In this document: positions 7,578 through 20,806 of the stretch, piece by piece | Layout of the letters: every line of letters begins with the position of its first letter | Position numbering within the stretch: the stretch's first letter is position 1 | Source: Pseudoalteromonas tetraodonis | GTDB taxonomy: Bacteria; Pseudomonadota; Gammaproteobacteria; Enterobacterales; Alteromonadaceae | Direction: 5' to 3' | Length of the DNA: 32,000 bases | Assembly: GCF_002310835.1 (NCBI RefSeq) | Contig: NZ_CP011042.1 | Location: 210,001 to 242,000 of the forward strand | Made by a program: the position numbers and the translations under genes | The notes under the pieces: model-generated | Databases searched by the model: none | What the model saw: only the letters and a program-made list of their open reading frames with translations | What the model was told of the DNA's origin: nothing

Positions 7578-8837
7578 ATGACAATAATAAACTGGGGTCT
7601 ACTTGGCCCTGATAAACTTGAATCTGAACGACGCACTCGCACCTTGGGTCTTGCAGTTGCTGTACGTGCATTTAATGACTTGGCAGTACCTAATTTAGGT
7701 GGGGTAAAATTTAGTAAAAATGTTTTTTTAGCCTGTTTGGGCATTCATGTGGCTGAAAAAGTAAGATTAGAGGATAAGCAGGTAAGTAACATACAAGTTG
7801 CAAATGCAATTGAAGCGCTCGGCTGTATTTTGTCGTTTGAAAAAAATAATTGGCAGTCTGATGAAAGGTTAAGGGGAAACTCCAAGTTAGCAGGTGCAAA
7901 GGATTTATCATTTAAAGTAGTTGGCGCTAACAATTATTATGTAACACAGCCTATGCGTATGGCTACTGTGCAATTATTACCAGGACTTGGGTTAGTTGAA
8001 TCACAAGGAGAGCGATTTAATAGCTATAGTTTGAACGACAACGGATTGAAGTTAGTTATTGCCGGCTGCGCTGATTTAAAATGTTATAACAGTAGTATTG
8101 TTAATTTTTTAGTTAAGTGGGTGCTAGGTAATCATAGAAACCCTAGAGTAAGTGGTTTAATAAAGGCGCTAGCGCCTATTTATAGTTTAGCGGCAGACGC
8201 TAAAGCCATTTTAAAAGACCGTTTGGTTTCTGGTAATGATGAGTCTGCACTTCGAAGAAGAAATGCATTAACGTGGGTTAGTAATATAAATACAAACCCA
8301 TGTATTAATTGGCGAAAACCATCAGAATTAACAGACTTACATTTTAAAGACATAAAAAGTGGAGCTTACTTTTTCATACTCAGAGATAGTGTGATGATGT
8401 TATTAGACGCTATTGAAACCGCAGTTGCTAATGATAAGTCGGGGAGTTTAGATTTACGTAAAGGCACTCCTTTAGTTTTGCAAAACGCATTAACGAGAGT
8501 GAAGTCGGCTGCAACTAGTTTTGTTAATTTAAGCCATGATCCTACGCCTGATAAATTAGCGCTGAGTTTTGCACGTGAATGCTTACAAAGTCAGGATGAA
8601 TTAATTATTTTAAGTATTGTTGAAAGAGATAATTTAGTACTTAAAGTAAGAGATAAAGCTGTTATTAAAGGATCTGCTTTTGGTGGAGTGCAGCAAGAAG
8701 CTAACGACGCTGGCGAAACAGAAAGCTTGTTTCCAAAAGGCGTTTCATTTCGTTTTTGGAACTTGTATTTACTGAATGTTGACTTCGATGGGCAGCTCGA
8801 TATGTGGCTAAATAAAAAGGAGAAAGCAGATGAGTAA
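7578..8837 (+). CDS. Hypothetical protein, 419 aa, first gene of the PLD/SNF2 module; no recognisable domain
   Basis: Long ORF with an AAGAAGG SD-like sequence before ATG 7578. Its stop overlaps the next start (ATGAGTAA). I recognise no catalytic or TM motifs. Confidence 0.7.
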   Translation: MTIINWGLLGPDKLESERRTRTLGLAVAVRAFNDLAVPNLGGVKFSKNVFLACLGIHVAEKVRLEDKQVSNIQVANAIEALGCILSFEKNNWQSDERLRGNSKLAGAKDLSFKVVGANNYYVTQPMRMATVQLLPGLGLVESQGERFNSYSLNDNGLKLVIAGCADLKCYNSSIVNFLVKWVLGNHRNPRVSGLIKALAPIYSLAADAKAILKDRLVSGNDESALRRRNALTWVSNINTNPCINWRKPSELTDLHFKDIKSGAYFFILRDSVMMLLDAIETAVANDKSGSLDLRKGTPLVLQNALTRVKSAATSFVNLSHDPTPDKLALSFARECLQSQDELIILSIVERDNLVLKVRDKAVIKGSAFGGVQQEANDAGETESLFPKGVSFRFWNLYLLNVDFDGQLDMWLNKKEKADE

Positions 8838-10797
8838 CTCATTACCACTTTCTTTATCGGCTTATTTTGTGCCACCGACAGATTGTATTGGTGAATTTGG
8901 CTTGTTGACTGGATATTCGGCAGATACTCACTTTTTTAATGATGCACTTGATAAGTTTACGCAAACAATTAAATCACAAAGAGCCTATGAAGGAAGTGGT
9001 TATTTAGCCATGATGTTAGACCCAAACCATCACCAGATATCTGCGGTTGACTGCCCTGGGTTGGTTCATTTACCAGCTAAATCTAATATAGAAAAAAAGT
9101 TTAGATTGTTACATGCTAAAGTAGCGTTATTACTATTTAAAAATAAGCTAACAGAGCAAAAAATTATTAGGGTTATTGTTTCTACGGGGAATTGGACACG
9201 CCAAACAATAGAAGACAGTTTAGATATGGTTTGGTCGATTGATTATGAAGTAGCCTATAGTGATGATCATCAAGTGCAAACTGATATTGCCAAGGTGTAT
9301 GATTTTATCAATCACACTTTAACTTTTTTTAATATCGATATATTAAATAGCGTAAGAATAGAAAATAAAGCAACAGCAACAGCGCTAAGGTTTAAACACT
9401 ATCAACATGTTTTAGGTGAAATTAAGCCAGTAAAAAATGTACAACCTCGCTTTTTTGATAATACAAAGCAGGCACTCATCACACAGTTACCACATTTAAT
9501 AAAAACACATAGTAATAATACAAAGTGCAATTATTTAGCCCTTGGTTCTGGTTTTTATGAAGGTGGAGATAATAAGAGCAAAGTGCCAAAAGTGATTTCT
9601 GAGATTGAAAAAGTATTACAGCAGGCTGGTCTCTTAACTAAAACAGCTGAAAAAGATATTTATGTCAACCCTGATAATTGTCAACTAGTCGCTCAAACTT
9701 TAGATATATTAAATACAAATGATTGGTCAGTTAGGCCTGCTTACGATGCTGTTTATCAAAGTAAAAATTATCAAAGATCATTGCATGCAAAGTTTATTTT
9801 TTCAGCCAAAAATGGAAATGACGATAGCTGCAAAAGCTCATGGTTGTATTTAGGATCAGGAAATTTAACAACGCCTGGCTTTTTAAGTAAAGCAAGTTTG
9901 CATGGCGGTAACCTAGAAGCGGGAGTTGTGTTTTCTCCAAAAGAATTGAGTTGGTATGGCGAAGATGACTCAACTAATTGCATTAGTGATAAATTGCCTA
10001 TTAATTGGGATGAAGAAAGTATTATTACAGATGCTACGCAGTTGTGCTCAGGGAAGGGGATGCCAGAACTTGAAGGTGAATTTGTAGCTGCACCGATAAG
10101 TTATTTTACTATTTGTAGCTTAACTAAGACAGGTTGCTTATTACGACCTGATACTGATGATACAAAAGGCTATCAAGTTTGGTACGCTGAAAATTATGCG
10201 TGTGAGTGTAAAGGTGAAAATATAATTTGGCCCGATAATACTCCAAGGCAAGTGAAAGTTACGTGGAATATTAAAGATGCGACGCACAGCATTTATATAC
10301 CTGTATTCGATGAGTTTGGACGAATGGCAGCAACCGCTTTGCCTGAGTTAGAGATAGATGACGCATGGAACTTACTAGGCGCATTCCCTACTTTGCCCGC
10401 AGAGGACGGTTTCGATGGCGAGGTGCTAGATGAAAGCCATTCAGTGGCATTAAATTGTCAGCATGAGGCATCAGGTTCTAATTATTATTTAAATAAAATG
10501 ATGTTATTGATTGAACATGTAGCACAAAAACAAACAGAACTTGATCCATTCAACTGGGAACAGTGGTGTTATCGTTTAGAACAAATATTTTGTCAAATGA
10601 GTAAGTCAGCAGTAATTTCTTACTTTAAAGAAATTAATATTAATCCATTATCCCCTTTATGGGCTGCCCCTTTTAGACCTCATTTTGCAGAAGATTCAAG
10701 TACTGAGCAAGGTCGTTTATATGAGTCATTATTAAGAAAAATTGAACATAGTTTGGAATTGAATCAGTTAATAACGCTTGGAGGCAAAGGTGAGTAA
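8830..10797 (+). CDS. PLD-superfamily (two HKD motifs) phosphodiesterase/nuclease with an uncharacterised C-terminal half
   Basis: Motif 1 is LLHAKV...VSTGNWT (His codon 9112-9114). Motif 2 is SLHAKFIF...LGSGNLT (His codon 9784-9786). SD AAGGAG at 8817-8822. Overlaps both neighbouring genes. Confidence 0.8.
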   Translation: MSNSLPLSLSAYFVPPTDCIGEFGLLTGYSADTHFFNDALDKFTQTIKSQRAYEGSGYLAMMLDPNHHQISAVDCPGLVHLPAKSNIEKKFRLLHAKVALLLFKNKLTEQKIIRVIVSTGNWTRQTIEDSLDMVWSIDYEVAYSDDHQVQTDIAKVYDFINHTLTFFNIDILNSVRIENKATATALRFKHYQHVLGEIKPVKNVQPRFFDNTKQALITQLPHLIKTHSNNTKCNYLALGSGFYEGGDNKSKVPKVISEIEKVLQQAGLLTKTAEKDIYVNPDNCQLVAQTLDILNTNDWSVRPAYDAVYQSKNYQRSLHAKFIFSAKNGNDDSCKSSWLYLGSGNLTTPGFLSKASLHGGNLEAGVVFSPKELSWYGEDDSTNCISDKLPINWDEESIITDATQLCSGKGMPELEGEFVAAPISYFTICSLTKTGCLLRPDTDDTKGYQVWYAENYACECKGENIIWPDNTPRQVKVTWNIKDATHSIYIPVFDEFGRMAATALPELEIDDAWNLLGAFPTLPAEDGFDGEVLDESHSVALNCQHEASGSNYYLNKMMLLIEHVAQKQTELDPFNWEQWCYRLEQIFCQMSKSAVISYFKEININPLSPLWAAPFRPHFAEDSSTEQGRLYESLLRKIEHSLELNQLITLGGKGE

Positions 10798-13366
10798 TTT
10801 TTTAGGTTGGGAAAAGGTTGCTGAAATAATAAAAGATACTCTCGGATTCAATGAGCGTCTGAACTCAACCCAAAAAGAAAGTGTAAATGCGATACTAGAT
10901 AGGATAGCTGACACGGGAGTAATTATTGCTGATGAAGTTGGCATGGGTAAAACACGAATAGCAGTTGAGCTTATCCATGCTGTTAAACAAGCAGGTGGTC
11001 GTGCAGCCATTATTGTGCCCACAACATTAGGATTCCAATGGCAAAAAGAGCTTAATGATCGCGAAGCAGATTTAGCGCCTCAGCACACAGTAAATAGTCT
11101 CTGGCGTTTTATGTCTGCTTGGGCTGATTGTGACAAGCAAGAGCATTGGGATAAACAGTCGGTTATTTTATTATCTCAAAATTTTGCGAATTGGCGTATT
11201 GGTGGTAATTCTCATTCAAGTCGTTGGGCACTGCTACCAGAAGTGTATGCACAGTGGCGAAAAGCTAAAAATAACAGGTTACCTAATGGTTACAATAGCC
11301 ATGAAGACCTAAAATATATGGATGCTAAATATTGCGCACGTAGAATTGTTGAACAAACATATTACCTATCGAATAATGATCCTAGAAAGAAAATTTTAAA
11401 TTGCATCATTGAAAACTTTGAATGGGGTGTAAATTCATTTGGCGGGGATAATTTTTCTGCTGGAAGTGAATACCGAGATTTGTTAGAAAAAACGGTAGGT
11501 TTAGGACTCGGTTCATTTGACTTAGTTGTTATAGATGAAGCACATAAAAGCCGAGGTGAAAGCAGTAGCTTAAGCCGAATTTTGAATGAAATTATTATTC
11601 AAAATGATAATGGTCGCCGGTTAGCTATGACGGCTACACCTGTTGAGTTAAATGTTGAGCAATGGCAACAAATGCTCAATAGAATTGAGTTATCCGAATC
11701 TGATCAGCAGCCTATTTTAAAGAGTGTTGATAACTATGCTAAAGCTGTTGCTAAACTCAAGTTATATTGGAAGGTCGATGAGCAATCTCGGTTGAGTTTT
11801 CAGCGGGCCGCTAGAGCGTTTGAAAACTCGTTAAAACCTTATTTATTAAGAAGAGATAAGCGACAAGACCCAACAATTCAAAAATTTCACTCTGTTTCAA
11901 ATTTACCAATTAATGAATATAGGAAGCATACCCAGGTTGAAATTAAAGTAGAAGAACTATCAGAGCAGTGGAAGCAAATAGTGTGCTCTGTTGAAGGGCT
12001 ATCTGCTGCTTCAATTATGCAAGATGCGACTTCAAAAAGAGCACGACTTACGCTAGCTAATGGTCACGGGATTGCTGGAATTATAGATAACTCAGCTTAT
12101 TCATCCCCTCAAGGTGACGATGACGAGCTAGAAAATGATTTGAACAATGATGATAGTAAAAAGCTTCAACGGGCTCACTGGTGGAAAAAACAGATTACTG
12201 AGGTATATGCAAGTGGAGATGAATCGTTATATCAACATCCTGCATTATTAAAAGTTATTTCAGAAATTGAAAATAATTTAATGTTGGGTCAAAAAGCATT
12301 AGTGTTTGGTAAGTTGACCAAGCCTATGAGGATATTAGTTAATTTATTAAATGCAAGAGAAATGCTACGCAGGCTAGATAAAAACGAGTTTTGGCCTCAA
12401 ACTAAAATTCATATCAGTGATAAAGAAAATGATGACTCTGAAGTGCATGCGGCCAAATTTGCGTCAAAGCAACTTGGTTTAAATTGGAGTATTAATGAAA
12501 TAAATGATCGTTTAAAACGTCAATATGAAAAGCATGCAAACCAAGTGGACCAAACTAAACAACACCTGATTGAAAATATTGAACACTCAATCTCTTTATT
12601 GGATACACGTTGTGAACAGCTCTTCAAAGCATTTAAAAAATCTGTTGAACAAGCCTGCTCAGAGGAACATTCTGTTCTTACTTTTATGACTCGTGCTATT
12701 TATGAGTTATCAGATTCAAGCGATTTTAATTTAACATCTGAAGAGGTTGCTCAGGGTTTTATTGATCTAATGGGTGCAGTCACAGCAGAGAATGAAGGTG
12801 ATGCCGATGGTGATGGTCAATTAGATGAAAAAGAAGCAAGCAAGCTTTGGCCCTGTATAGAAGCAAGGGTAAAAGAAGAGTATGAACATGTTAGAGGTGG
12901 CATGGCGCGCTTAATGTATGGGAATACATCAGCGGCAAGTCGTCGTATGTTACAGTTGGGTTTTAATCGTAAGAACAGTTTTCCTAATGTGTTAGTTGCA
13001 CAGTCAGTAGTTGGACGAGAAGGGTTAAATTTACATCAAGCTTGTCGGTTCGTATATTTATTGCACCCAGAGTGGAATCCTGGCGTTGTTGAGCAACAAA
13101 TAGGTCGTGTTGATAGGCTCGGATCTCGTTGGGAGAAAGAGTTTTCCGAGCAACAAGAGCAAGGAGGAGAGCTTCCGTTTATTGAAATTAAGCAGGTTAT
13201 ATTTAAGGGAACTTATGACGAATATAATTGGCAGGTATTGCATGCGCGCTGGGATCAACTTCGCTCACAATTACATGGAGTTGTCATCCCTATAAGTGAA
13301 CGAGATGATGCGTTTTCACATTATTATGATGAATTATGCTTAGCTGCACCGGATTTTACTCCTTAA
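10790..13366 (+). CDS. SNF2-family (SF2) helicase/translocase
   Basis: Motif I DEVGMGKT (Lys codon 10949-10951), motif II DEAH (11534-11545), MTATPVE, GREGLNLH and QQIGRVDRLGS. GTG 10790 follows GGAGG (10780-10784) and overlaps the PLD stop (GTGAGTAA). The track's TTG 10778 is the alternative start. Confidence 0.9.
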   Translation: MSNFLGWEKVAEIIKDTLGFNERLNSTQKESVNAILDRIADTGVIIADEVGMGKTRIAVELIHAVKQAGGRAAIIVPTTLGFQWQKELNDREADLAPQHTVNSLWRFMSAWADCDKQEHWDKQSVILLSQNFANWRIGGNSHSSRWALLPEVYAQWRKAKNNRLPNGYNSHEDLKYMDAKYCARRIVEQTYYLSNNDPRKKILNCIIENFEWGVNSFGGDNFSAGSEYRDLLEKTVGLGLGSFDLVVIDEAHKSRGESSSLSRILNEIIIQNDNGRRLAMTATPVELNVEQWQQMLNRIELSESDQQPILKSVDNYAKAVAKLKLYWKVDEQSRLSFQRAARAFENSLKPYLLRRDKRQDPTIQKFHSVSNLPINEYRKHTQVEIKVEELSEQWKQIVCSVEGLSAASIMQDATSKRARLTLANGHGIAGIIDNSAYSSPQGDDDELENDLNNDDSKKLQRAHWWKKQITEVYASGDESLYQHPALLKVISEIENNLMLGQKALVFGKLTKPMRILVNLLNAREMLRRLDKNEFWPQTKIHISDKENDDSEVHAAKFASKQLGLNWSINEINDRLKRQYEKHANQVDQTKQHLIENIEHSISLLDTRCEQLFKAFKKSVEQACSEEHSVLTFMTRAIYELSDSSDFNLTSEEVAQGFIDLMGAVTAENEGDADGDGQLDEKEASKLWPCIEARVKEEYEHVRGGMARLMYGNTSAASRRMLQLGFNRKNSFPNVLVAQSVVGREGLNLHQACRFVYLLHPEWNPGVVEQQIGRVDRLGSRWEKEFSEQQEQGGELPFIEIKQVIFKGTYDEYNWQVLHARWDQLRSQLHGVVIPISERDDAFSHYYDELCLAAPDFTP

Positions 13367-13381
13367 TATAAAAGTTTATTA

Positions 13382-14356
13382 ATGAATTCACATCGTCATT
13401 TATTGATTCTCGAGCTTGTGCCAATAGCGCCAAGCTCTATCTCGACTCAACAGCTACAGAAAAAGTTAGTTGAATGTGGCTTTGAGTTCCCCATTCGAAT
13501 GCTCCAGCGAGACCTCCAATCACTTTACGAGCAAGGTTGTTTTGGCCTTGAAAAAGACACGCGCAGTAAACCGTATGGTTGGTCTATTAATGCACAGTGG
13601 CGAGGTGGTAGCGCTAAAATTATGAGCTGCGAAGTAGCTGAGCATTATTTGTTACTAGAGCAGTTATTACCGCAATCTATACCGAGCGATGTTAAACGCT
13701 CAGTTCATATTAAAGCAGAACAAGCGCTTAAGCGTTTTAATGGCGATGTGCCTGACTGGCTTGCAACCCTGCCTAAACCGTCGTTAAAAGTGAATATTGA
13801 TAGCAAATTAGTTGCGCAAATTGAGCATGCGATTAAGCATAAGCGTGCTGTGAGCGCTGAGCTTTATAGAGTGCTTTACGATGAGGCGCACTGGTTAAAG
13901 TTTGCTGAATTAAGCTTTTATAGCTTAGTTGAGCAAGGTGGCGTGTTGATGGCGCAGTTTATGGTGGGGTCGCTTCACGATAAATGTTACCAGATGCCGG
14001 TTTATCGCATTCGCAATGTTCATATCCTGCAAAAAACACGACGTGAGCCAAGTGCTGAGCAGTTAAAGTCGTTACGCAGTGCGATTAATAAAGGTATGAA
14101 GCAAGAAGCGATTGAGTTAGTTGTGAAAGTACCCAGCCACTCGGTGGTTAATCAAGGGTTTATTGAGCTTGGAGAGCTGACTGACAAGCAACATATTGAT
14201 GAAAAAAATGTATTACTTACCTATCAAACTATTGATACTGAACAATTAACCGATGAGCTATTTAAATGTGCTCATTGGCTGGAAGTTATTAAACCTGAGC
14301 GCATTAGAAAAAGAATTACCACAAAGCTTAAAGCGGCTGCTAGTAACTATCAATAA
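13382..14356 (+). CDS. wHTH-WYL-WCX transcriptional regulator (BrxR/CapW/YafY-like)
   Basis: N-terminal winged-HTH pattern (ISTQQLQKKL..PIRMLQRDLQSL..G). Central WYL-like beta region (WLKFAELSFYSLVEQGGVLMAQF...VYRIRNVHIL). C-terminal WCX-like signature (HWLEVIKPERIRKRI). The architecture was recognised by eye. Confidence 0.75.
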   Translation: MNSHRHLLILELVPIAPSSISTQQLQKKLVECGFEFPIRMLQRDLQSLYEQGCFGLEKDTRSKPYGWSINAQWRGGSAKIMSCEVAEHYLLLEQLLPQSIPSDVKRSVHIKAEQALKRFNGDVPDWLATLPKPSLKVNIDSKLVAQIEHAIKHKRAVSAELYRVLYDEAHWLKFAELSFYSLVEQGGVLMAQFMVGSLHDKCYQMPVYRIRNVHILQKTRREPSAEQLKSLRSAINKGMKQEAIELVVKVPSHSVVNQGFIELGELTDKQHIDEKNVLLTYQTIDTEQLTDELFKCAHWLEVIKPERIRKRITTKLKAAASNYQ

Positions 14357-14371
14357 CGCTAATTAATTTTA

Positions 14372-14392
14372 GTGCGTCAATTTTTGACGCAC
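14372..14392. promoter_or_regulatory. Perfect palindrome GTGCGTCAA-TTT-TTGACGCAC between the WYL gene and the FtsZ-like gene; candidate operator (or weak terminator)
   Basis: 9-bp arms read from the sequence. It contains TTGACG and lies just upstream of a possible extended -10 (TGtTATGCT, 14398-14406). Only a poor T-tract follows. Confidence 0.35.
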
Positions 14393-14429
14393 CTATTTGT
14401 TATGCTCCTTTAAAAGTTAAGGAGTGGTT

Positions 14430-15527
14430 ATGTTTCAATTAATTCAGCAAAATGATGGTTTATCGATTGGTGTATTTGGCATTGGTGGGTGTGGCTGTAA
14501 TACGCTTAACAGTATTTTTGAACAACGCGAGTCTGAGCAGGCGCACTTATACAGCGTTAATACCGACAAAGTAGTGCTTGAGCATACACAGAGTGATGAA
14601 GCAGTACTGATAGGTGCAGAGCTCACTCATGGGTATGGTGCAGGAGCCGACCCTAAAGTTGGGCTGCAAGCGGCAGAAGAGAGTAAAGAGCAGCTTTTAA
14701 CGCTTATTAATGGCTGCGATATAATTTTGTGTGCAACAGGGTTGGGTGGCGGTACTGGGACTGGCGCTAGCCCGTATATTGCAGAGCTTGCTAGTGAGCA
14801 AGGTAAGCCCATTATATTTGTTGCTACACTGCCATTTAGTAGTGAAGGACAGTTTAGAAATAATATAGCGCAAGCAGGTTTAAATGAGCTTAAAGAGCAT
14901 GCTAATGCGGTTATTACGCTCCCTAACGATCAACTTATTGAAGTGCTTGGTAACGATATAGGATTATTCGATGCGTTTAAGCACTCAAACCAAATACTCC
15001 ACTCACTGATAAAATCACTCATCGATATGCTTTGTTTTCAAGGGCTTATAAATGTTGATTTAAACGATTTTGCTAAAATTATGGATTGCCAGGGTGATGC
15101 AGTCCTAGGTGTTGGTAAATGCGATGAAGAAAGCGAGCTTACTACTGCATTGGATAGTGCACTCAATAACCCACTTGTTAATCAAGTTGATATGTCATCA
15201 AGTACGGGTGTAATAATACAAGTAAATTGCAAAGATGAAATTTCACTCGGTAGTTATAACCTCATTACCGATACAGTGCGCCAGCGGGTCAGCCCAAACG
15301 CGTTAGTTATTTGTGGTGTTTCTAAAATTGAAAATTTAGCAATGAATTATGAACTGTTGATCATTGCAACCGGTGCAAGCGCTAAGATGATTGTTGAACC
15401 TTTCGATAATGCGCCTAGTAGCGAAGTCGAACAATCGCCAGCTGCAAGAGCTAAACCTCAAGCTTCTGATATTTTTGACATACCAGCGTTTATACGTAAT
15501 CAAGCACCAGCTCCTTGTGGAAAATAA
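14430..15527 (+). CDS. Divergent FtsZ paralogue (tubulin/FtsZ GTPase) retaining the C-terminal FtsA/ZipA-binding peptide
   Basis: GIGGCGCN, VNTD, GYGAGADPKVG, GLGGGTGTG (14739-14765), LPFSSEG, LPNDQL, T7 loop NVDLND (15051-15068) and terminal DIFDIPAFIRNQA (15468-15506). SD AAGGAG at 14419-14424, 5 nt before ATG 14430. No dcw-cluster neighbours. Confidence 0.9.
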   Translation: MFQLIQQNDGLSIGVFGIGGCGCNTLNSIFEQRESEQAHLYSVNTDKVVLEHTQSDEAVLIGAELTHGYGAGADPKVGLQAAEESKEQLLTLINGCDIILCATGLGGGTGTGASPYIAELASEQGKPIIFVATLPFSSEGQFRNNIAQAGLNELKEHANAVITLPNDQLIEVLGNDIGLFDAFKHSNQILHSLIKSLIDMLCFQGLINVDLNDFAKIMDCQGDAVLGVGKCDEESELTTALDSALNNPLVNQVDMSSSTGVIIQVNCKDEISLGSYNLITDTVRQRVSPNALVICGVSKIENLAMNYELLIIATGASAKMIVEPFDNAPSSEVEQSPAARAKPQASDIFDIPAFIRNQAPAPCGK

Positions 15528-15577
15528 CTATGTTACTGCTTTGAGAGTCTGAATACATTTTTCAGTGAGATAACCCT

Positions 15578-15904
15578 ATGAATGTATATTTAGATGATGA
15601 AAGAGAAACACCAGCCGGTTGGTTAAGAGCCTATTGGCCTAGTGAAGTGATTAAACTTTTGAAGACTGGTAAAGTAAAGCTGCTTAGCCTTGACCATGAT
15701 TTAGGGAATGATAATAAAGGCACTGGCTATGACGTTTTACTTTGGATTGAGCAGGCAGTGTTTATTGATGGCTTTGTACCGCCAACAATAGCCGTTCACT
15801 CAGCCAATAGCTCAGCACGAATTAAAATGGAACGCGCAATTACACAAATTAATTTACTGGCTAAAAATCAAAAGGGTTCTAAACGCTGTGATGGCGAGTG
15901 GTGA
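15578..15904 (+). CDS. Small receiver (REC/flavodoxin-like) fold protein with YLDDER...SLDHDLG...VHSAN motifs (cREC-like family)
   Basis: 108-aa ORF. The motif pattern matches a family of about 100-aa proteins that I recall being annotated as cyclic-phosphate-processing receiver domain, common in phages and conflict loci. The assignment is from memory only. Confidence 0.6.
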   Translation: MNVYLDDERETPAGWLRAYWPSEVIKLLKTGKVKLLSLDHDLGNDNKGTGYDVLLWIEQAVFIDGFVPPTIAVHSANSSARIKMERAITQINLLAKNQKGSKRCDGEW

Positions 15905-15931
15905 GCTTTGCAAGTAAACAGGAATATTTTT

Positions 15932-16651
15932 ATGAATACGTTATACATTACAGGAGCTGGTGTGAGTGCTGCTAGTGGTATTCCAACTTTTCGTGGTGAG
16001 GATGGCTTTTGGACTATTGGTAGTAAAAACTATACGCCAATGGAAATGGCGACACGTGCAATGTATGAAAATAACCCGAGTGAGTTTTTAGCTTGGTATT
16101 ATCATCGTTTTGCAACTTATCGTAATCATGGTCCTAATGAAGTGCATCATTGGCTTAGTGATAAAAACTTAATTACCCAAAATATTGATGGGCTAGATGG
16201 TAAGGCGGGTAATAAAAATTACATTGCGATTCATGGTCGGCTTGATCAAATGACGCTGTTTCATCATCAGGGCGATGATGTCACACCAGAAGCTACGCTA
16301 TGGAGTAATGTTGATGAGAGCAACTTACATCGCTCTCTACTTGCGTTATTCAATATTGAAAACCATCAGCCAAAGCTTAATCATTCTTTAAAGCCCTTTG
16401 TGTTGTTATTTGATGAATATTACACCGAGCTATACCGCATTACTGAAGCGCAATCGCGAATGATTGCGGCCGATAAAATGGTGTTTATGGGTACTTCGTT
16501 CAGCGTTAATATTACTCAAATGGCGCTCGAGATTGCGCGAAGTTACAGTATTCCTATTGAAATTGTTGACCCCGACCCTGCTCATGTATTGCACTCAAAT
16601 GTAAGCTATAAAAAAATGACTGCGTTGGAGTACATACAGCAACAAGGTTAA
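15932..16651 (+). CDS. SIR2/sirtuin-family NAD+-dependent enzyme lacking the Zn-ribbon cysteines
   Basis: GAGVSAASGIPTFRG Rossmann/NAD motif, QNIDGL, and catalytic His in IAIHG (codon 16232-16234). There is no Cys anywhere in the segment where sirtuins carry CxxC...CxxC. ATG 15932 with ACAGGA upstream is preferred over the track's TTG 15908. Confidence 0.9.
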   Translation: MNTLYITGAGVSAASGIPTFRGEDGFWTIGSKNYTPMEMATRAMYENNPSEFLAWYYHRFATYRNHGPNEVHHWLSDKNLITQNIDGLDGKAGNKNYIAIHGRLDQMTLFHHQGDDVTPEATLWSNVDESNLHRSLLALFNIENHQPKLNHSLKPFVLLFDEYYTELYRITEAQSRMIAADKMVFMGTSFSVNITQMALEIARSYSIPIEIVDPDPAHVLHSNVSYKKMTALEYIQQQG

Positions 16652-17878: not shown

Positions 17879-20806
17879 ATGACCGCTCATCGGATAACCC
17901 ACGCTGTACATCACTCTCTTCCACTTTTTATTAAATCAACGCTGTGCATCTCTATTTTATCTGTGATTAATCATGCATATGCTGATGAAGCAGAAGATAA
18001 AACATTAAAAAGCAAAGATATGGAAGTCATTGAGGTGCGTGGTATTCGTTCCAGTATGGCGGCTAATTTAGATATAAAGCGTTTATCGAGCTCTGTGGTT
18101 GATGCCATAACAGCAGAAGATATTGGTAAGTTCCCTGATAAAAATGTCGCAGATTCATTACAACGCGTACCAGGGGTAGTGATTGACCGTGACGGAGGCG
18201 AGGGCTCATCGGTAAGTATTAGGGGGTTATCATCTGAGCTAACCTTTTCTCAGCTAAATGGTAATTTTATTGCGTCATCACCAGGTGAGCCATCTCGTTC
18301 GTTTGATTATGCATTACTGCCCTCAGCCATGATTGAAAGCGTGGAAGTGTATAAATCACCAGAGGCACGTTTAGATGAAGGTGGCGTGGGCGGCACGGTA
18401 TTAATGCATAGTCGTAAGCCGCTAAGTATGGATGCAAACTCAGGGGTGATTAATATTGAAAGCACTTATGCCGATGTGACTGAAGAGTCTGAGCCCCAAG
18501 TAACCGCACTTTATTCTTGGAAGAATGAGGCTGATACTTTTGGTGTGTTGTTTGGTTACACCTCACAAAAACGCACTAACCGAACTCTCTCAGGAGGCAC
18601 AGATGCAAACGTATGGCGCTTTGCCGGTGATAACCCGATAGATACCAATGGCGAGCTGGTTGATAATAATAATCAGTGGGGCTCAATAAGTGATGCTCAG
18701 GGTAATAGTTATGACGATGTTTGGTTTCCTCAAGTGGTTCGTGGCTCAATTGTAAACGAATTACGTGAGCGAGAAGGGGTGCAATTTAGCACGCAGTGGC
18801 GCCCAACCAGCCGTGTTAAAATTGGCTTTAACTATTTTGGATTTTCACTTGATAAAAATAGAACTGAGTCGGTGATTGATATACCTGAATGGTCTTTAAA
18901 TCCTGACTTTTTAACCGATGTAAGTTTGGATGAGTCGGGCACTATTATCAATGGGATGCAATTTGATGCAGCTGCGAGTGGCGCAGAGAATGATATGCAA
19001 CTGCCGTGGATGCGAGGCTCTTATGTGCGTGAAGAGTCGACCTCAGACACTTTTGATTTTAATTTAACCTATGAAGGCGATTATTTTAAAGCCCGTTTTG
19101 TGGCGGGCAATACGCGCTCTGAAGGCGGGCCAAAGGAGAGTTGGGAAGCGGCGTATAAAAGTTCAAACGCCGGTGAAAATGAAAGCCGTATAGAAAATGC
19201 ATCGCAAACAGCGGGTTGGCAAATTAATGAAAACGATATTAGTTTAAATATAGACCCTAATACGCTAGCTAACTTACTAAATGGTGTGGGCGGTGGGCGC
19301 GATCCAGGCTCGTCAAATTCAAGCTTTGTACGCAGTGAACTCGAAGAAGATTACTATCAAGCTGACTTTGATATTTATACCGATTGGGGAATTTTAAGAA
19401 CAATTAAAACAGGGGTTAAGTACCGAGAAGCTACGCTGCATCGCGAAACCGGTAATACCTTCTTTTTAGATCCTAATTTTGATATTGCTGCAGCAGAAGC
19501 CAGCGAGTGAGGGATCACACGTTTTGACAGTTATCAGTGGAACAACGGTATGCCACTAGCACAAGACGTGTTTATTAACGAAGGTAACATTGCGGGTGGT
19601 TTTAATATTAACCAAATGCCCGGTATTGATTGGCAAAAATACCGCGATATTGTGACCAGTCATTATGTGCCGTATACACGCAAAGAAGATAACTTTATTT
19701 ATGATATTGAAGAGCAAATAGCGGCGTTTTATCTGCAAGGTGATTTTGAGTTTAATAGCGTGCGAGGTAATTTAGGGGTGCGGGTGGTACGCACTAAAAC
19801 CATGACATCATCAACCGACCTATATACTTATTTATTAGATCATACCAATGATGACAGCGGCGAGCCGGTAACCGGAGATGATCGATTTGTTGAAGACTAT
19901 CAACTTATTACTCAAGAGAGTACCGATACTCAAATTCTTCCTAGCTTTAATATTGCATGGGATATAAGTGATGATGTAGTGGTACGAGGCGCGGTTGCTA
20001 AAGTGATGTCACGACCTGATTATGCCGATTTAGGCGCACAACAACGCATTACGTTTGTCTCAGATGAGTGGGCAGACGATAGAGCTGAGTTTAATGAAAT
20101 TCCGGGTTTTAGTGGCAGTGGCGGTAATAAAAACTTAAAGCCATTTGAGTCGGTGCAAGCTGATTTATCTATTGAATATTATTACAGCGAAGGCTCTGCC
20201 ATTGGTTTAGCACTGTTTCATAAAACAGTTGATAATTTTGTTGTTCCCTTAGTTATTGACGTACAGCAAGATTTTGCTGGTAAAGAGGGCATAGTTGAGG
20301 CAGGAAATATTACTGTATCGCCATATAGCACAGTAGGTAATGGCACTGATGCCGTATCTAAAGGGGCGGAAGTATTTATACAGCATGCCTTTGATAGTGG
20401 TTTTGGTTTTTATGCAAACTACACTTATAACAAAACCAATAAAGCCGATGTAAGTGTAAATGGTGAAGAATTTGGCCAATCACCATTAATAGGCAGTGCT
20501 AAGTATCAATACAATACCTCGATATATTATGAGGGAGATGCCTTTAATGTTCGTGCTTCTTATAATAAACGCGGTGAAACCGTGTTGGGTTTAAACAGCG
20601 GCTTAAATGTATACCAAGACCCATACGAGCAAGTTGATGTAAATGCTTCGATTAATTTATTAGAGGATTTGAGTTTGACCGCTGCAGTTATTAATTTGAC
20701 TAAATCTGAGTCGGTAAAGCGCCTAGGTAATGATACAGAGTCTCGGTTATTAAACTCAAGCTATTCGGGAAGACGTTATTATGCGGGCATAAACTACCGT
20801 TTTTAA
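17879..20806 (+). pseudogene. TonB-dependent outer-membrane receptor interrupted by a single in-frame TGA (19508-19510)
   Basis: The track ORFs 17879-19510 (signal peptide plus plug: DAITAEDIGKFPDKNVADSLQRVPGV) and 19550-20806 (barrel ending ...YYAGINYRF) are in the same frame. Codons 19511-19549 contain no further stop. Confidence 0.8.

Follow-up and report, generated by a model that had tools for sequence, protein, structure and literature searches.

A three-gene module pairing a Tdp1-like PLD enzyme with an SNF2-family ATPase is a candidate defence system in Pseudoalteromonas tetraodonis

What do three tightly overlapping genes next to a type I restriction–modification (R–M) system encode, and do they form a defence system in their own right? 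The genes lie in a 32,000-nucleotide stretch of the Pseudoalteromonas tetraodonis genome, called the window here. All three are on the forward strand: g1 (7578–8837, 419 aa), g2 (8830–10797, 655 aa) and g3 (10790–13366, 858 aa, GTG start), referred to below as the trio. Both junctions have an 8-nt overlap in the window. At the g1/g2 junction (8817–8837, forward strand; ATGAGTAA), the SD sequence AAGGAG (8817–8822) is followed by an ATG that overlaps the TAA stop; at the g2/g3 junction (10780–10797, forward strand; GTGAGTAA), GGAGG (10780–10784) is followed by a GTG that overlaps the TAA stop. The open reading frames and both junctions thus match the coordinates given in a preliminary description of this DNA, which had noted overlapping stop and start codons, each with an SD sequence. 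Because of the GGAGG at 10780–10784, GTG 10790 is the likely start of g3, in preference to the TTG at 10778 that opens the longest reading frame. The trio follows hsdR, on the same strand, after a 99-nt spacer. In this spacer between hsdR and g1, neither a terminator nor an operator repeat nor a structure (z = −0.28) is convincing, and promoter-like matches occur at chance level only. A gene for a WYL-type putative transcriptional regulator (13382–14356, forward strand; PADLOC WYL model, E = 6e-10; weak Pfam WCX match) starts 15 nt past the g3 stop and, in the window, probably belongs to the operon as its fourth gene. A terminator-like hairpin after it (14372–14392, forward strand; 9-bp stem with five G–C pairs), recognized by consensus match only, is likely to mark the end of the transcription unit.

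The first protein, g1, is labelled 'hypothetical' in RefSeq, as is g2. The preliminary description had recognized no motif in it, and the domain and structure libraries bear this out: g1 has no match in Pfam, PADLOC 2.0, NCBIfam or the PDB sequences (sequence and profile searches), and a Foldseek comparison of its model with the PDB and BFVD gave nothing significant (best E = 0.5). A likeness to FokI (Foldseek rank 4, probability 0.13) was not usable. The predicted fold (AF2 pLDDT 85.5, pTM 0.84) is mostly helical with small β-hairpins, and the N-terminal tail is Arg-rich, conserved and predicted to be disordered. An alignment of 24 sequences contains 54 invariant columns. The family comprises 512 clusters at 50% identity, and members of the best 150 of these are stand-alone proteins of ~420–450 aa or fragments shorter than that; fusions are absent among them.

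The second protein, g2, belongs to the Tdp1-like branch of the PLD superfamily, with a bilobed α/β fold and two HxK…N motifs. Motif 1 (9112–9192, forward strand) consists of His95-x-Lys97 and Gly120-Asn121, and motif 2 (9784–9918, forward strand) of His319-x-Lys321, Gly344-Asn345 and Glu363; both are invariant in 28 sequences. The preliminary description had proposed a bilobed PLD protein with two HKD motifs. The two motifs, the positions of their histidine codons (His95 at 9112–9114, His319 at 9784–9786) and the bilobed fold all stand; the motif type does not. Both motifs read H-x-K…G-N and have no Asp at +7, which makes them HKN type, as in Tdp1, and not classical HKD. The motifs of Tdp1 are HxK…N without the HKD Asp. 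Sequence and profile searches of g2 against PDB sequences gave no match, and the predicted structure (AF2 pLDDT 85.6) places the bilobed phosphodiesterase in residues ~1–400. The best Foldseek match is yeast Tdp1 (1q32; E = 1.4e-9, probability 1.0), and further top matches are PPK1 PLD-like domains and PLD3. In Pfam, Tyr-DNA_phospho scores 23.6 (cut-off 22), and PLDc_2, at 23.7, is below its cut-off of 27. Past the PLD part, g2 has a β-sandwich (~420–495), an acidic disordered linker (525–550) and a conserved helical C-terminal domain (~550–640).

Judged by its sequence, the third protein, g3, is an SNF2-family ATPase/translocase with intact motifs. Walker A/motif I (DEVGMGKT, 10931–10954), motif II (DEAH, 11534–11545), MTATPVE (11627–11647), GREGLNLH (13013–13036) and motif VI (QQIGRVDRLGS, 13094–13126) all lie on the forward strand, and a script confirmed every motif position listed earlier for g2 and g3. 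Between the RecA lobes is a ~340-aa insertion, and g3 has acidic stretches at 12116–12154 and 12794–12829; the preliminary description had noted a long, partly acidic insertion between the lobes. The residues Lys54 (motif I), Asp249-Glu250-Ala251-His252 (motif II) and Arg773 and Arg776 (motif VI) are invariant. Pfam SNF2-rel_dom, ResIII and Helicase_C are above their cut-offs in all 21 g3 homologues (SNF2-rel_dom on g3 itself, 47.3 against a cut-off of 24.9), and the nearest solved relatives in a PDB profile search are RapA, SMARCA5 and ISWI.

Do these proteins belong together? Wherever the contig is long enough to judge, in 66 of 66 genome loci, the order is g1–g2–g3, and homologous junctions have conserved overlaps, mostly of 4 nt and also of 1 nt. 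The pairwise distance matrices of the three proteins co-vary (r = 0.85–0.90; 0 of 999 permutations reach the observed value). The three-gene arrangement is far beyond chance. It occurs in Proteobacteria, Planctomycetota, Acidobacteriota and Nitrospirota, and also on plasmids, and the genes flanking it are not conserved between loci. Three Pseudoalteromonas species carry versions only 44–46% identical to that of the window, in different contexts, and this divergence points to horizontal transfer. A survey of co-occurrence, suggested earlier as a check, thus finds the trio strictly together elsewhere, in defence or mobile contexts. Searches of phage records, of viral contigs in IMG/VR and of genomes of E. 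coli did not find the trio, and hence no validated relative exists.

The surroundings of the trio were then compared across loci. In the window, it is located inside a 16-kb island with the type I R–M system and a SIR2 gene, with housekeeping genes on either side and a lower G+C content than its surroundings (0.37 against 0.40). The type I R–M system named in the preliminary description is real: NCBIfam matches confirm hsdM, hsdS and hsdR (HsdR, 447 bits, cut-off 284.6; HsdS-type matches present; HsdM, 187 bits, below the equivalog cut-off of 242.75). Elsewhere, the trio is often flanked by defence or mobile-element genes, which include WYL/WCX, LeoA/BC, DrmC/D, IetA, SspH, BrxF, IS66, integrases and TrwC, as well as BREX, CRISPR, R–M and conjugative plasmids. 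WYL genes lie within 6 kb in 22 loci, about one-third. A Haematobacter locus has BREX-1, a reverse transcriptase and an OLD-type nuclease nearby, and a Shewanella locus has an integrase, type III-B CRISPR and dynamin-like GTPases. Other neighbours are methylase/HNH, DUF2357-PDDEXK_7 and ABC ATPase genes, and some trios share an operon with a PD-(D/E)XK and UvrD (AddAB-like) pair. Counting against a defence reading, recognizable defence or mobile genes make up only ~1/4 of the nearest neighbours, and many of the others are ordinary genes.

The position of the trio behind hsdR on the same strand, together with local similarity of g3 to DrmD, DpdE and BrxH, could mean that the trio is an accessory restriction arm of the type I R–M system, or a fragment of DISARM, Dpd or BREX, that needs a neighbouring methyltransferase. 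We consider this most improbable. Apart from the window, hsdR adjoins the trio only in a 98%-identical locus of Pseudoalteromonas neustonica and in 0 of the other 79 loci; the type I R–M neighbour is incidental, and we reject a functional tie to it, as the neighbourhood is not conserved. In addition, DrmA, DrmB (DUF1998) and a methyltransferase are found neither beside the trio in the window nor among the conserved neighbours of the 66 loci, and g2 and its 27 homologues have no DrmC match in PADLOC at E ≤ 0.1.

A search with defence HMMs, the check that could have placed the trio in a named system, did not do so: in PADLOC 2.0, g1 matches nothing, g2 matches ZacB locally and g3 matches SNF2-type models locally. 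NCBIfam scores of the trio are far below every curated cut-off. Membership of PDC-M27 was rejected (g3 reaches only 88 bits over short stretches; g1 and g2 match no PDC-M27 model). Literature searches turned up no named PLD + SNF2 + WYL or Tdp1-like system that matches the trio.

The trio is therefore most likely an unnamed nuclease-plus-motor candidate system against phages or plasmids, with an Azaca-like architecture; the defence role is inferred from context. With a probability of roughly 0.6, we read it as an autonomous, horizontally mobile nuclease–translocase immunity module against foreign DNA, probably WYL-regulated in the window. This agrees with the earlier proposal of a nuclease–helicase defence module, Azaca-like or new, which is supported by the failure of the HMMs to place the trio and by its conservation in defence and mobile contexts. 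The overlapping genes would yield three proteins in fixed proportion, which may act as one complex. Within it, the SNF2 motor of g3 would track along double-stranded DNA using ATP, and g2 would cut or trim DNA through a covalent phospho-histidine intermediate, without metal. The protein g1 could be an adaptor or sensor that couples g2 and g3 and supplies target choice. Because no methyltransferase travels with the trio, self cannot be told from non-self by a methylation mark on host DNA that is dedicated to this purpose. More likely, the system would respond to some trait of the invader, such as modified bases, DNA ends or intermediates of replication, or would be gated at the level of transcription by the WYL protein.

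Also counting against defence, the closest fold to g2 is a repair enzyme, Tdp1, and not a restriction nuclease, and WYL regulators and the AddAB-like partners of some loci occur in DNA-repair settings too. The trio could be a DNA-repair module. In that case, g1 would recognize the lesion, g2 would strip 3′ adducts or protein–DNA crosslinks, the SNF2 motor would clear away the stalled complex or remodel it, and DNA damage would switch on the operon through the WYL protein. The structural match of g2 to a tyrosyl-DNA phosphodiesterase, its HKN motifs, a Tyr-DNA_phospho score just over the cut-off and the operons shared with the PD-(D/E)XK–UvrD pair are in line with this, as is the control of damage responses by some WYL regulators (PafBC, DriD). 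However, vertical inheritance and stable contexts are the norm for core repair genes, whereas the trio has a patchy, transfer-like distribution (only 512 clusters at 50% identity over several phyla), exists in three divergent versions within one genus, and is found on plasmids and beside integrases, CRISPR, BREX and R–M. A repair role is therefore quite unlikely. Another reading keeps immunity and drops the kinship with Azaca: the trio would be a separate, previously undescribed system that applies Tdp1-type chemistry to the DNA termini or covalent protein–DNA linkages of invaders. It might act on relaxase-linked conjugative DNA, on phage genomes primed by a terminal protein or on 3′-blocked ends. 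In this version, g1 would serve as a sensor of a new type, with the SNF2 motor delivering the enzyme, and the AddAB-like-linked variants would be end-processing extensions of the same machine. We regard this version as improbable.

If the trio, as we favour, is an immunity module and protects cells, a widespread defence family of 512 protein clusters (50% identity) has been missed by present annotation tools. Two orphan families, g1 and g2, would gain a function, and an Asp-less Tdp1-like PLD enzyme would join the immune effectors, alongside an SNF2 motor.

Finally, we compare the trio with known systems. Tdp1 resembles g2 in fold, over residues ~1–400, and in having two Asp-less HxK…N motifs. 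Tdp1, however, is a repair enzyme of eukaryotes that stands alone, and its sequence is only ~10% identical to that of g2. A further ~250 residues are present at the C terminus of g2, whose gene is invariably accompanied by those for g1 and the SNF2 motor. Class 1 DISARM (DrmA, DrmB, the PLD protein DrmC, the SNF2 protein DrmD and DrmMI) resembles the trio in that a PLD-family nuclease and an SNF2 ATPase occur together in one operon, but g3 matches DrmD models only locally (66.6 bits, about one-tenth of the NF038317 cut-off of 610), and g2, which does not match DrmC, has HKN motifs and carries both lobes in one chain. Fused PLD–helicase proteins (NCBIfam NF042964; PADLOC PLD_Helicase) likewise use a PLD domain and an SF2/SNF2 helicase for defence. 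Their models match g3 locally (55.7 bits, cut-off 1100), and they are single polypeptides, whereas the trio has separate PLD and motor genes and a third, obligatory gene.

Azaca (ZacA–ZacB–ZacC), reportedly described by Millman et al. in 2022, is the closest comparison in architecture. It consists of ZacA (DUF6361), ZacB (PLD) and ZacC (SF2 helicase), and it does not cleave T4 DNA unless its three proteins and the Walker A motif of the helicase are all present (bioRxiv 10.1101/2025.07.10.664194); the preliminary description, which had named it as a combination of helicase and PLD domains, was correct by this source. Both are three-gene operons that begin with an accessory protein and continue with a PLD-family protein, a putative nuclease in the trio, and then an SF2 helicase. 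ZacB is the sole PADLOC family common to all 28 g2 homologues, and it aligns at a comparable relative position (model 291–337 of 586 against g2 residues 310–371 of 655); the match is local (E = 7e-10; best among homologues, E = 1.4e-10, 36 bits). ZacC also touches g3 (E = 1.2e-9), over motifs V–VI only. The trio might accordingly be a very divergent true Azaca, with g1 as ZacA, g2 as ZacB and g3 as ZacC, a mechanism identical to that of Azaca and hypermodified phage DNA as a possible target. We hold this to be unlikely: ZacA/DUF6361 is matched neither by g1 and its 23 homologues (E up to 10) nor by three distant plasmid homologues, the ZacB and ZacC similarity is limited to ~50 residues around the catalytic motifs, and PDC-M27C, DrmD and DpdE all outscore ZacC on g3. 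PADLOC 2.0 would not call the trio Azaca. Set side by side, the trio and Azaca could reveal which features are essential to three-part PLD–helicase systems, and how such systems choose their targets without a methyltransferase.

The trio comprises three forward-strand genes: g1 (7578–8837, 419 amino acids), g2 (8830–10797, 655 amino acids) and g3, which runs from a TTG at 10778 (862 amino acids) or a GTG at 10790 (858 amino acids) to 13366. The junction sequences, AAGGAG-N7-ATGAGTAA between g1 and g2 and GGAGG-N5-GTGAGTAA between g2 and g3, show an 8-nt overlap of each downstream start with the stop of the gene before it, and a Shine–Dalgarno sequence ahead of each such start; GTG 10790 is the likely start of g3. 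All motif coordinates in a preliminary description of this DNA were borne out by a script check. Upstream of the trio is a type I restriction–modification system (hsdM, hsdS, hsdR). Downstream, a WYL-type regulator gene (13382–14356, forward strand) begins 15 nt past the g3 stop and is followed by a terminator-like hairpin (14372–14392, forward strand), beyond which lie genes for an FtsZ paralogue, a cREC receiver-domain protein and a SIR2 protein. Housekeeping genes flank this 16-kb block (peptidase U32 and ferredoxin before it, a TonB receptor and a TlpA-like redoxin at the opposite end), and neither a tRNA gene nor an integrase was seen around it in the window. The trio is slightly more AT-rich than its surroundings (G+C 0.37 versus 0.40).

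The FtsZ paralogue (14424–16651 region) is divergent, scoring 281.5 bits, just below the ftsZ cut-off of 295.2; the genes that come after it within this region are a cREC_REC ‘cyclic-phosphate processing receiver’ gene and the SIR2 gene. Genes of its family are frequent in Pseudoalteromonas, Moritella, Colwellia and Vibrio, in variable, island-like contexts that include TOTE-system domains (Vibrio) and DUF87/FtsK_gamma (Moritella); the adjacent cREC and SIR2 genes are not kept in the three relatives looked up. A homologue of the cREC protein (59% identity) lies just downstream of the trio in Limnohabitans (locus L057, 16780–17073), with no FtsZ or SIR2 match near it. Further along the window, two consecutive same-strand ORFs (17879–19510 and 19550–20806) look like a single TonB-dependent receptor in two pieces, an N-terminal half with the Plug domain and a C-terminal half, and may represent a frameshifted or split gene.

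The preliminary description treated the three genes as a module, and they are indeed kept together elsewhere. Scanning one genome per species yielded 80 loci, 14 of which were left out of the synteny count because the contig ends inside the operon; in the remaining 66 of 66, homologues of g1, g2 and g3 are consecutive on one strand, align over their full length and share 34–62% identity, with junctions that are mostly 4-nt or 1-nt overlaps. The hosts include Gamma-, Beta-, Alpha- and Deltaproteobacteria, Planctomycetota, Acidobacteriota and Nitrospirota. Pairwise distances between homologues of one protein track those of the other two (matrix correlation r = 0.85–0.90; none of 999 permutations as high), indicating that the genes evolve and move together. 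Of the 80 loci, just that of Pseudoalteromonas neustonica (98% identical) has hsdR and the FtsZ gene alongside the trio. In two further Pseudoalteromonas species the trio is only 44–46% identical and stands in other contexts, which points to spread by horizontal transfer. Seven plasmids carry a g1 homologue, with the whole trio in all four examined. The trio was not found in phage records, in IMG/VR or, by blastn, in E. coli.

The g1 protein belongs to no recognised family in the sequence libraries searched. Clustered at 90%, its relatives number more than 770; almost all lack a name or are called ‘hypothetical’, and one carries an isolated annotation as ‘S49 family peptidase’. When 1.84 billion representatives were searched exhaustively with a profile, 512 clusters were recovered (E ≤ 1e-3), the best 150 of which are stand-alone proteins of about 420–450 amino acids or shorter fragments, with no fusions. 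The predicted structure is confident (pLDDT 85.5, pTM 0.84) and mostly helical, with short hairpins that, judging from the model, could be winged-helix wings; no structure in the PDB or BFVD resembles it. The first ~25 residues are predicted to be disordered, yet W6, G7, R19 and R21 within them are invariant, which suggests a docking peptide.

The AF2 model of g2 is also confident (pLDDT 85.6), and the best fold match for residues ~1–400 is yeast Tdp1 (E 1.4e-9, probability 1.0), followed by the PLD-like domains of PPK1 and then PLD3. Two motifs are present where the preliminary description placed two HKD motifs, with H95, K97, G120 and N121, and H319, K321, G344, N345 and E363, invariant. However, neither His is followed by an Asp seven residues on, and the motifs are therefore HKN, not HKD. 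HKN motifs are those of Tdp1. The PLD core is followed by a β-sandwich, then by a disordered acidic linker and a helical domain that is strongly conserved; for none of these can a relative be recognised.

The g3 family is an SNF2 ATPase in 21 of 21 homologues examined, with motifs I, II, III, V and VI invariant and RapA and ISWI/SMARCA5 as the closest solved structures. Residues 671–682 (12800–12835), in the second acidic stretch flagged earlier, read DADGDGQLDEKE and match the canonical EF-hand loop D-x-D-x-D-G-x-L-D-x-x-E. The strict pattern occurs in 10 of the 21 homologues and is degenerate in the others; from its sequence, it may be a metal-binding regulatory loop within the SNF2 insertion.

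Clustering the ORFs that flank trio loci revealed recurring neighbours: a WYL/WCX regulator no more than 6 kb away in 22 loci (in 15 of them upstream and co-directional), a double-AAA+ ATPase in 14 and, in some, a DUF2779 protein or a UvrD-like helicase. When 227 neighbours, nearest and second-nearest, were scanned for known families, they included WYL/WCX, defence genes (LeoA/BC, DrmC/D, IetA, SspH, BrxF, mad8 and HipA), mobile-element genes (IS66 transposases, integrases, TrwC and T4SS components) and numerous ordinary genes. The order on a Pantoea plasmid is AAA+ ATPase, WYL, trio and a NERD gene, and on a Desulfosarcina plasmid WYL and AAA+ ATPase genes precede the trio. In Shewanella baltica the trio has as neighbours an integrase, dynamin-like GTPases and a type III-B CRISPR locus; two metagenome contigs place it beside methylase/HNH, WYL and DUF2779, DUF2357-PDDEXK_7 and ABC ATPases. 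The double-AAA+ ATPase (about 700–745 amino acids) recurs with a WYL gene right beside the trio (L022, L023, L057, L061, L068, L081 5906–9004 and L083 5506–8851), joined in several loci by the DUF2779 protein; these genes may serve the trio as accessories or form a distinct module under WYL control.

Plasmids of Haematobacter (L082, 3258–14560) and Fuscovulum (L084, 3259–14779) carry a more distant trio (g1 identity 27–30%) in a five-gene variant, in which an AddAB-like pair, a PD-(D/E)XK nuclease (848 amino acids) and a UvrD-family helicase (about 1066 amino acids), overlaps head-to-tail with g1–g2–g3 as one operon, suggesting an end-processing extension of the system. The Haematobacter operon adjoins BREX-1, an OLD-type nuclease and a reverse transcriptase. 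A role in DNA repair is the main rival to immunity: it would suit the Tdp1 fold of g2 and the AddAB-like and WYL partners, but it is disfavoured by the distribution of the trio, which is patchy, mobile and island-associated. The best-supported reading is an autonomous, DNA-acting nuclease–translocase immunity module, in which the SNF2 motor would be coupled to the Tdp1-like effector through g1 as adaptor or sensor, in an operon probably often under WYL control. The trio does not travel with a methyltransferase, so discrimination would have to depend on features of the invader or on control of expression.

The preliminary description proposed a nuclease–helicase defence module, either an Azaca-like variant or a new type, and no named system claims the trio: in PADLOC 2.0, g1 has no match, g2 has a single local match to ZacB (the only consistent family, common to all 28 homologues) and g3 has local matches, the best to PDC-M27C (88 bits), DrmD and DpdE and a weaker one to ZacC; NCBIfam scores are about one-tenth of the curated cut-offs. 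Membership of DISARM was rejected: DrmA, DrmB, a methylase and a DrmC match are all absent, and the DrmD score is sub-threshold. Azaca combines ZacA (DUF6361), ZacB (PLD) and ZacC (SF2 helicase), and it cuts T4 DNA in vitro only when the three are all present, in a reaction that also depends on the Walker A motif of the helicase (bioRxiv 10.1101/2025.07.10.664194). Compared with Azaca through HMM models and its description, g1 does not match DUF6361/ZacA and g3 shows no specific likeness to ZacC, whereas architecture and gene order are shared and the HMM match ties g2 to ZacB by a specific but remote link. The trio family itself is unnamed in the libraries and literature searched, and its combination of helicase, PLD nuclease and accessory protein is a known class.
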